From the IMG/VR virus record IMGVR_UViG_2703718861_000003: a stretch of 14,139 bases of DNA; one strand, written 5' to 3'. Positions 9,001-12,000 of the stretch are shown here, piece after piece; position 1 is the stretch's first letter, and each line of letters opens with the position of its first letter. The stretch is from a virus (taxonomy: Duplodnaviria > Heunggongvirae > Uroviricota > Caudoviricetes). A program made the position numbers.

Positions 9001-12000
9001 GTCCAACCATTGAGCCAGGAGATCTCATCTTCGTTGATATCAGTATCAATCAGTTTGATGGGGATGGTATATATGTATTTGGTTTTGATGATAAAATTTA
9101 CGTCAAACGACTGCAAATGATACCTGATAAACTGCTGGTAATTTCTGATAATCAGATTTACCGCGAATGGGGAATTACCAGCGAAAACGAACATCGGTTT
9201 ATGGTCTTTGGAAAGGTCTTAATCAGTCAGTCACAAACCCTTAAGCGACACAATTAACCCCCTACCTCAATATCAATTAGCCACCAGAAGGTGGCTTTTC
9301 ATTACTCACCAAATTGCATATCTCGCAATAAAAACACTTGCATAATGCGCAACTTCATTTTATCTTTCTTTCCAGACATACAAACAAGGTACTAACAAAA
9401 TTTGGTTGTAACACGGCGTATGGCACATGCGTCGTTAGCGGTCTGGGGACGTTAAAGGGGACAATCCACTCCTTGCTCGGGCAAACAAACCAGGTAGCCG
9501 GAATGTGCAAGTCAATGATGATGCTGATAAGACGCCTAACCAGCGTGGCGGTTCGGTTTGACACCTGGGAAGAGACCAGGGTGCAACGATGAGGGCATTT
9601 ATGGAACCGCGACAAAGTGTGGTGCCGTAACTGGCTAAGTGCTCTCAGCGTTGTGGTGAATGCGCAGGCTGATGCGCGAAAGACATTGCAGCTATTGCGG
9701 AAAAGAGCTGTTCGGCGGGGCAATTAAACGCCCGTGAGAGTCTGAAATAACCGCAAGCCGGAGATCAGCACCGGTCACCACAACAGCCACTGCTTTGGCG
9801 GTACCAGTTTGTACACTTGCTTCCGGCTGGTACCGCTCTTTTTACAAAACAGAGAAGAGCATCACCGGACGACGGGCTCATAACCCAATCCATCCGGGCG
9901 GCTGCCACCGCAGGTGTTCTTCTCTGTTTTGTGGAGAAACCAACCGACCTTGCAGGGTCGATATGATGAGGAGCAACAAAATGGCTAGCGAACGCAGTAC
10001 TGATGTGCAGGCATTTATCGGGGAGCTGGACGGCGGCGTATTTGAAACAAAAATCGGCGCAGTTCTCAGTGAAGTCGCTTCCGGTGTGATGAACACGAAA
10101 ACCAAAGGTAAGGTCTCGCTCAACCTGGAAATCGAACCGTTTGATGAGAACCGTGTGAAAATCAAACACAAACTCTCATATGTTCGCCCGACTAACCGCG
10201 GGAAAATTTCCGAAGAAGACACCACCGAAACGCCGATGTATGTCAATCGCGGTGGTCGCCTGACTATTCTGCAGGAAGACCAGGGACAATTACTGACTCT
10301 TGCCGGTGAGCCTGACGGAAAACTCCGCGCAGCAGGTCATTAATATCGTTCTTAATTAACTGATTATTTATCTCATCACTGAATATCTTAATATAGTGAG
10401 GACTTATTATGTCTCAGAACTTAGACGCAACCGCAATTAATCAAATCCATGCCCTTATTTCTGCTCAGGGTGTTAATGAAATTATCAGTAAGATTGGTGC
10501 CGACGCAGTGGCATTACCTGAAAATTTCCGCATTCATGATCTGGAAAAATTTAATTTAAATCGCTTCCGTTTCCGTGGTGCGCTTTCCACTGCCAGCATC
10601 GATGACTTTACCCGTTATTCTAAAGATCTTGCAGATGAAGGCACCCGCTGCTTTATCGATGCCGATAATATGCGTGCCGTCAGTGTGCTTAACCTGGGTA
10701 CTATTGATGAACCAGGTCACGCAGATAACACCGCCACTCTCAAACTGAAAAAGACAGCACAGTTCTCTGCTCTGTTGTCTGTTAACGGCGAGCGTAACTC
10801 CCAGAAGTCACTGGCAGAATGGATTGAAGACTGGGCCGACTACCTTGTGGGCTTTGATGCTAATGGTGACGCCATTCAGGCAACAAAAGCGGCTGCGGCA
10901 GTCCGTAAAATCACAATTGAAGCGAACCAGACTGCTGATTTTGAAGACAATGACTTCAGCGGCAAACGCTCCCTGATGGAGTCTGTCGAAGCGAAGACCA
11001 AAGATATTATGCCAGTGGCATTTGAATTTAAATGCGTTCCGTTTGAAGGTCTGAAAGAACGTCCATTTAAATTACGCCTCAGCATTATCACTGGCGATCG
11101 TCCTGTACTGGTTCTGCGCATTATTCAGCTGGAAGCAGTGCAGGAAGAAATGGCTAACGAATTTCGTGATCTGCTTGTTGAGAAATTCAAAGACAGCAAA
11201 GTAGAAACCTTTATTGGTACTTTCACCGCCTGATTTCATTACTGCAAATGCTCCTGCGGGGGCATTTATGGAAACGTAATTAACTCAATAATCGCCGGAT
11301 GGTGCGGGATTCCTTTTACCCGAATTCAGCGCGGTGCAGCGCATATAAAGTGGAGAACGAAATGTCATTTATTAAAACTTTTTCCGGGAAGCATTTTTAT
11401 TATGACAAGATAAATAAAGACGACATCGTGATTAACGATATCGCGGTTTCCCTTTCAAATATCTGTCGCTTTGCAGGACATCTTTCACACTTCTACAGTG
11501 TCGCCCAGCATGCGGTGCTTTGCAGCCAGCTGGTGCCGCAGGAATTTGCTTTTGAAGCGTTAATGCATGATGCAACAGAAGCGTATTGCCAGGACATCCC
11601 CGCACCACTGAAACGACTTCTTCCTGACTATAAACGGATGGAAGAAAAAATAGACGCCGTAATCCGTGAGAAATACGGGTTACCTCCTGTTATGAGCACG
11701 CCAGTGAAATATGCCGATCTCATCATGCTGGCAACCGAACGCCGCGATCTCGGACTTGATGATGGCTCTTTCTGGCCTGTATTGGAAGGTATCCCGGCAA
11801 CAGAGATGTTCAAAGTGATTCCACTGGCACCGGGCCATGCCTACGGGATGTTTATGGAACGCTTCAACGAGTTATCGGAATTACGCAAATGTGCATAACT
11901 CATGTAGTTAGTTTTTCTGGCGGGAGAACATCTGCATATCTTGTTCACCTGATGGAAGAACAAAGAAAGGCTGGCAATAACGTCTGCTACATCTTTATGG

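Follow-up and report, generated by a model that had tools for sequence, protein, structure and literature searches.

The window analysed here, a stretch of 14,139 nucleotides (nt) from the Caudoviricetes record IMGVR_UViG_2703718861_000003 of IMG/VR, carries at 9981-11898 three consecutive genes corresponding to yfdP, yfdQ and yfdR of CPS-53 (KpLE1), the cryptic prophage of Escherichia coli K-12. An initial annotation of the sequence had suggested this likeness from the lengths (120, 274 and 178 amino acids, aa) and order of the three products, with pairwise alignment to the K-12 proteins as the check. The open reading frames (ORFs) were found exactly so, all on the + strand: yfdP (9981-10343), whose 120-aa product is identical to K-12 YfdP at 119/120 positions; yfdQ (10409-11233), encoding a 274-aa DUF2303 protein identical at 271/274; and yfdR (11362-11898), encoding a 178-aa HD phosphohydrolase identical at 176/178. 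For yfdR the start is an ATG internal to a 199-aa ORF, with GTGGAG in front of it. These BLASTP alignments, made with the MG1655 CPS-53 region as the K-12 reference, amount to 99% protein identity for each gene and confirm homology with yfdP, yfdQ and yfdR far beyond chance. At the DNA level the match to CPS-53 extends over 9962-11896 with 97.1% identity, beginning 19 nt before the yfdP ATG and ending 2 nt short of the last base of the yfdR stop codon. Another block common to both, at 4255-5087, corresponds to yfdM/N/O, while window positions 5107-9962, which hold the immunity and regulatory region, have no counterpart in K-12. By all sequence criteria for yfdPQR, the locus is an already known cassette.

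The surrounding DNA places this cassette within a lambdoid prophage. Positions 9700-13800 match the chromosome of E. coli STEC2018-607 at 100%, and the whole window matches it at 99.5-100% identity except for 6860-7276 (megablast); the identical locus carries the RefSeq names yfdP, yfdQ and yfdR. In the STEC2018-607 annotation the prophage is integrated at yecE, adjoining a DUF72 gene, yecN and cmoA. Its gene order is the lambda layout, with the + strand corresponding to the "leftward" direction: an S24/helix-turn-helix (HTH) repressor gene is followed by yfdPQR and a gene resembling 3'-phosphoadenosine-5'-phosphosulfate (PAPS) reductases, then by two small genes, an Ead/Ea22-like gene, xis and int. 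Thus yfdPQR are the first coding genes of a leftward (pL-type) early operon behind an intact cI/cro switch. The cI-like repressor gene (8565-9257, +), upstream of yfdPQR and on the same strand, matches HTH families and Pfam Peptidase_S24 (5.9e-19) and is labelled an XRE family regulator in RefSeq; the cro-like HTH gene (8207-8467, -; RefSeq) diverges from it. The apparently intact immunity context described in the initial annotation was therefore recovered: the S24/HTH repressor, the cro-like gene diverging from it and the repeated operators are present, and all are absent from K-12.

Between the repressor gene and yfdP lies a region with several candidate regulatory elements. A terminator-like hairpin (9279-9296, +) follows the repressor gene, and two TTGC-N7-GCAA palindromes (9314-9328 and 9338-9352) form a putative oL, the same motif recurring in the cI-cro intergenic region (8530-8544) as a putative oR. 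The window contains three exact matches to this motif against 0.54 expected, and none beyond the oR and oL positions; judged from the sequence, the palindromes are putative operators of the cI-like repressor. Weak promoter-like hexamers (TTGCAT-17-TATCTT), which match 7/12 consensus positions when read by eye and were not flagged by the consensus scan, overlap the oL palindromes, and we infer that a pL driving the cassette is situated at this oL-like site. From there to yfdP, a distance of about 600 nt, RefSeq annotates no gene. At its end, directly upstream of yfdP, this interval contains a strongly structured 171-nt leader of three hairpins (9795-9965, +), with a minimum free energy of -80.9 kcal/mol and z = -8.06. 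The leader is present in 2492/5426 complete E. coli genomes, with a median copy number of one and mostly where no feature is annotated; it is missing from K-12, in which homology starts only at 9962. No Rfam family was found in the leader or the cassette. Within the early-left transcript the leader may serve as an RNA element for processing or regulation.

The cassette itself is a composite of two evolutionary units, an obligate yfdP-yfdQ pair and an independently spread yfdR. YfdP matches phrog_204 (1.2e-49) and its homologues are grouped as Pfam PF27127; the window protein drew no Pfam hit, the Pfam copy searched having no PF27127 model. YfdQ matches DUF2303 (Pfam PF10065) with 309.3 bits against a cut-off of 26.6, over residues 7-272 of 274. 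The DUF2303 family comprises about 1,869 clusters at 50% identity, and among the 150 matches listed the lengths range over 155-302 aa and are mostly about 265-290 aa. The two genes are 65 nt apart in the window, and yfdP lies directly upstream of the DUF2303 gene in 80/80 IMG/VR loci surveyed (YfdQ at at least 99% identity). The arrangement also holds at great distance: in Vibrio phage 34E29.1, Xanthomonas phage Tabio, Halomonas phage H4907 and phage ArgO145, a YfdP homologue (phmmer E of 3e-19 to 7e-43) is located 55-65 nt upstream of a DUF2303 gene. Next to the pair in these four phages, neither a YfdR homologue nor an HD domain was found, and the neighbours are a single-stranded DNA-binding protein (SSB), a DUF1351-like protein or unknowns. 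In a collection of phage records, YfdP matches 180 and YfdQ 184, with almost equal taxon counts, and the profile of YfdR is different. This pairing in distant phages, independent of yfdR, is new here. Behind the yfdQ stop, a GC-rich hairpin lies in the 128 nt that separate it from yfdR; no conserved RNA structure was found in the 55-65-nt yfdP-yfdQ gap of five phages.

These observations raise the alternative that yfdP-yfdQ is an autonomous two-protein system, for instance an accessory to phage DNA metabolism or an anti-defence complex, and that yfdR is an unrelated neighbour brought in by the mosaic shuffling usual in early-left operons. We regard this as a tentative reading with a limited though real chance of being correct. 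Retention of the pair without yfdR in 34E29.1, Tabio, H4907 and ArgO145 speaks for it, as do the 26 phage-collection records named "Stx2a-converting", all of which match both YfdP and YfdQ, a name missing from the ten commonest organism names of the YfdR records. The genes found near the pair (SSB, exonuclease, RecT or a Tad2-like anti-Thoeris gene), the hairpin and 128-nt gap separating yfdQ from yfdR, and the eight polar residues of YfdQ that stay near-invariant at 35-47% identity (E46, R52, T61, H104, E140, D141, R166 and R223) point in the same direction. Within E. coli, however, the three genes are nearly always together (77/80 IMG/VR loci), the K-12 phenotype described below requires both yfdQ and yfdR (PMC4776307), and neither YfdP nor YfdQ matches any PADLOC defence or anti-defence model; YfdR likewise gave zero matches to the PADLOC defence models. 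The pair could, with the same reserve, have an undescribed host-takeover or anti-defence function to which yfdR is a mere neighbour, the leader being separately a possible cis-regulatory RNA.

In Vibrio phage 34E29.1 the Tad2-like gene (L005, 5212-5721) is the third downstream of the pair, past the SSB gene and a small ORF, which hints that the neighbourhood of the pair can house counter-defence genes. A role of YfdPQ as a cryptic recombinase module was deemed unlikely by the authors of PMC12315714, since the ArgO145 pair coexists with a full Rec module. A YfdQ homologue of about 40% identity was detected, by sequence only, in PDB entry 9o7m ("YfdQ Protein", 36 chains); this entry was not among the fold-library results, and the literature search gave no paper on it. 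Functional work on yfdP-yfdQ would best address the two genes together in a live phage, for example mEp460.

YfdR contains the H...HD...D metal-binding motif (H50, H69-D70 and D119), which places it in the HD superfamily, and it aligns with the HD protein Atu1052 (PDB 2gz4; E = 1.9e-13). It matches phrog_318, "dNMP phosphatase" (deoxynucleoside monophosphate phosphatase), and is labelled 5'-deoxynucleotidase in RefSeq, in keeping with the HD-domain nucleotidase that the initial annotation had expected. The protein is set apart from YfbR because it scores below the cut-offs of both the Pfam YfbR-like family (PF12917, 24.3 bits against 25.9) and the NCBIfam equivalog (NF003009, 19.9 bits against 122), and because its BLASTP match to E. 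coli YfbR is merely local (33% identity over 40 aa). By these comparisons YfdR is classed as a separate HD subfamily and not as a YfbR orthologue. Zimmerman 2008, as cited in PMC4776307, reported dNMP phosphatase activity for K-12 YfdR with nucleotide affinities far below YfbR's.

The intact HD motif and the PHROG and RefSeq labels could nevertheless mean that remodelling of nucleotide pools is the main role of the cassette, YfdR acting as an early dNMP phosphatase like Dmp of phage T5 and its DnaA binding being incidental. With T5 Dmp there is an established case of a phage dNMP phosphatase reshaping deoxynucleoside triphosphate pools (PMC12265719), and tblastn found YfdR homologues in 333 phage records, spread over lytic and jumbo phages of many hosts and including phages of Bacillus, Caulobacter and Rhizobium. 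We nonetheless consider such a role improbable. The nucleotide affinities, in the account given by PMC4776307, are far below those of YfbR; YfdR stays under the Pfam and NCBIfam YfbR thresholds, with the short local match noted above; and just 28 of the YfdR tblastn records have an organism name beginning with "Escherichia", which suggests that T5-like phages were not hit, given the number of T5-like records to be expected in the collection.

Directly behind yfdR, and overlapping it, lies a gene for a PAPS-reductase-like PP-loop protein (11889-12767, +; 292 aa), which matches Pfam PAPS_reduct over residues 5-72 only, with 36.9 bits (cut-off 22.5). The initial annotation had noticed this gene correctly, and had taken it, together with the immunity context, as a hint that K-12 may carry a truncated form of a module that is more complete in the window. 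The latter idea did not hold: the K-12 genes are full length, and the PAPS-reductase-like protein has zero similarity to YfdS on comparison. Homology between phage mEp460 and the window is unbroken over 6288-11896 and is back at 12774, the sole difference being the gene at 11889-12767. In mEp460 the slot is occupied by a 120-aa DUF551 gene, 99% identical to K-12 yfdS, whose overlaps with yfdR (10 nt) and with the next gene (4 nt) equal those of the window gene. The IMG/VR survey gave the same picture, yfdR being directly downstream of the near-identical yfdQ in 77/80 loci, in which the slot holds YfdS (52), the PAPS gene (8) or another gene (14) or is cut off (3); just one of the remaining 3 loci is clearly without yfdR. 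The yfdR-PAPS junction is present in 392/5426 complete E. coli genomes. Because of the homology break with mEp460, which coincides with the gene boundaries, the lack of YfdS similarity and the 77-locus survey, the slot is regarded as polymorphic and the PAPS gene as an alternative cassette in it, an exact gene-for-gene replacement of the commoner yfdS allele; the same three results rule it out as the part that a truncated K-12 gene would be missing.

As an enzyme, the slot protein falls short of the full-length criterion for CysH (NCBIfam PRK02090, 20.3 bits against a cut-off of 154). Its best match in the PADLOC defence library is SspD (1.8e-15), followed by weak matches to BrxP and DndC, and its features resemble those of an ATP pyrophosphatase that modifies nucleic acids more than those of an enzyme of sulfate assimilation. 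The protein has an N-terminal PP-loop, SFSGGRTS, and C-terminal cysteine motifs, NCVFC and SCSESC.

At least 80% of the length of the cassette (9981-11898) is found in 2456/5426 complete E. coli genomes (about 45%), at 95-99% identity, as well as in the isolated phages mEp460, SfV, SfIV, cdtI and phiSTEC1575-Stx2k and in Stx2c and Stx2a converting phages. The cassette is ordinary in that gene content, gene order and published phenotype have all been described already; in PMC12315714 one of its genes, the first listed, is called a putative nucleotide phosphatase, no function being known for the remaining two. Maintenance at such identity in so many genomes would fit a reading in which the genes serve the lysogen, being expressed from the prophage to give tolerance of oxidative or alkylation stress, and are not lytic early genes. 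To this may be added the weak sensitivity reported for K-12 yfdQ deletions to H2O2 and methyl methanesulfonate, and the raised H2O2 and acid sensitivity reported on deletion of CPS-53 (Wang 2010 and Rooney 2009, as cited in PMC4776307). But the abundance of prophages alone also explains the high prevalence, the same genes are present in lytic podophages, and the window genes are placed behind a repressor-controlled region and have no consensus promoter of their own. We consider a lysogen-benefit role very improbable.

The phenotype on record for these genes concerns chromosome replication. Noguchi and Katayama 2016 (PMC4776307) found that multicopy yfdQ and yfdR together with yfdS or yfdT inhibit initiation at oriC, which bears out the effect of yfdQRST overexpression named in the initial annotation; yfdP was dispensable for this inhibition. 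Purified YfdR binds DnaA in a manner dependent on Phe46 of domain I and moderately inhibits DiaA-DnaA and DnaB-DnaA binding, and the authors suggested a host-takeover role in an ancestral phage, likened to that of lambda P (PMC4776307). In the window, yfdQ and yfdR are present, both 99% identical to K-12. Searches with tblastn found no homologue of yfdS or yfdT in the window or in 28 kb around the STEC2018-607 cassette, a stretch (L001) that runs from the gene for late antiterminator Q to past the integrase; the same queries found both genes in mEp460. Because yfdS and yfdT are absent, the window does not hold the complete yfdQRST inhibitory cluster. The K-12 phenotype requires yfdQ and yfdR with yfdS or yfdT, and it is therefore not simply transferable to the window prophage; replication inhibition is not to be assumed in prophages that, like this one, have neither yfdS nor yfdT.

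We propose, with a confidence somewhat above even, that the locus is best explained as a yfdPQR cassette of the SfV/mEp460/CPS-53 type, situated early-left, built of two units and with YfdR acting on DnaA. Upon infection or induction the early-left operon would be derepressed. YfdR would then bind DnaA domain I at the Phe46 surface, in competition with DiaA and DnaB, and this binding would damp initiation at the host oriC; that the window protein has this property is predicted from its 176/178 identity to K-12 YfdR. YfdR may additionally act as a weak dNMP phosphatase, and YfdQ would also contribute.

Several points weigh against this proposal. The effect on initiation was seen on multicopy supply only, deletion having no initiation phenotype, and the authors themselves allow for an overexpression artefact (PMC4776307). 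To these are added the missing yfdS and yfdT homologues, the low nucleotide affinities of YfdR relative to YfbR in the cited account of Zimmerman 2008, and a fold search in which YfdP and YfdQ had no recognisable relatives. Because the consensus scan flagged no strong sigma-70 promoter for pL, the early timing that we suppose rests on the analogy with lambda. The present comparisons show the identity, anatomy, mosaic boundaries and distribution of the cassette, and the published work on the 99%-identical K-12 proteins shows DnaA binding and multicopy inhibition; early timing and any role in the window prophage are inferred.

The remaining genes of the prophage, read from the RefSeq annotation of STEC2018-607, lie on the - strand and comprise antiterminator Q, DUF968, KilA-N, RusA, methyltransferase, PerC, replication, Rha/antirepressor, ymfL and cro-like HTH genes. 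The replication-protein ORF (5012-5995, -; 327 aa) is intact in the window, whereas its STEC2018-607 counterpart (L001, 7304-7693) is a RefSeq incomplete pseudogene covering only the C-terminal part of the replication gene; K-12 yfdO matches just the C-terminal 34 residues of the window gene. A 133-nt masked N run (13774-13906) lies just past the Ead/Ea22-like gene, and an ORF at 13770-13925 is an artefact of this masking.

Two RNAs were recognised by Rfam on the - strand, a C4 antisense RNA (7112-7199, 82 bits) and an isrK RNA (7224-7300, 62 bits), along with a sub-threshold c4-a1b1 C4-target match (7261-7313, -; 25.8 bits, where the gathering score is 46.7). All three are inside a long ORF (6509-7660, -) named "Rha family regulatory protein" in RefSeq, and the true start of the antirepressor gene is probably downstream of them. 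We take such an RNA-then-antirepressor layout to be that of P1/P7 immI and of Gifsy isrK-anrP. The stretch 6860-7276 (compared with L001, 9152-9577) is the only non-N part of the window that does not align with the STEC2018-607 prophage by megablast; it takes in the C4 RNA, the greater part of isrK and the beginning of the antirepressor region. The STEC2018-607 copy of this stretch still scores as C4 and isrK, and the two prophages look like carriers of different alleles of the antisense-RNA region.

Among known systems, CPS-53 of K-12 has the three genes in equal order and length, but lacks the immunity region and structured leader upstream of yfdP and continues downstream with yfdS-yfdT-ypdJ-torI, where the window has the PAPS-reductase-like gene, two small genes and the Ead/Ea22-like gene. 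The K-12 copy is a good model of the three proteins, yet without their native repressor, operators and leader. A close counterpart among isolated phages is mEp460, in which the antirepressor, cII-like gene, cro, cI, leader and yfdPQR are all in continuous homology with the window. Shared with the group of early-left operons to which it belongs (mEp460, SfV, cdtI, ST64B and LLS) are also the lack of a Rec module and the many Chi sites of the "LLS functional type" described for lambdoid phages (PMC12315714). The window prophage fits this type: no Rec module is found in its early-left operon in the annotation of the identical STEC2018-607 prophage, and ten Chi sites (GCTGGTGG) occur between 114 and 7974 against 0.47 expected, eight of them on the - strand, all within the early-right half and zero in the yfdPQR region. 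The mEp460-type operons differ in having the 120-aa DUF551 yfdS-type gene after yfdR in place of the PAPS-reductase-like gene. ArgO145 (Sepvirinae, Stx2a-type) carries a diverged YfdP/YfdQ pair, with about 58% and about 52% identity to the window, and a near-identical PAPS gene product (gp21) followed, as in the window, by a 67-aa gene, a 79-aa gene and a related Ead/Ea22-like gene. It differs in its full Rec module (gam, RecT, exo, SSB) upstream and in a non-HD 147-aa gene where the window has yfdR.

At the level of the proteins, YfdR has the HD metal-binding motif in common with YfbR and the annotated activity in common with both YfbR and T5 Dmp, but it falls below the family thresholds, its substrate affinity is reported, in the account available through PMC4776307, as much lower than that of YfbR, and DnaA binding is recorded for YfdR alone. 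DiaA, Dps, SirA of Bacillus subtilis and lambda P have no sequence relationship to YfdR, and lambda P binds DnaA at domain III instead of domain I. Their likeness to YfdR is a proposed functional analogy only, in that all bind DnaA to modulate or block initiation at oriC, and DiaA, Dps and SirA do so at domain I (PMC4776307), as is proposed for YfdR.

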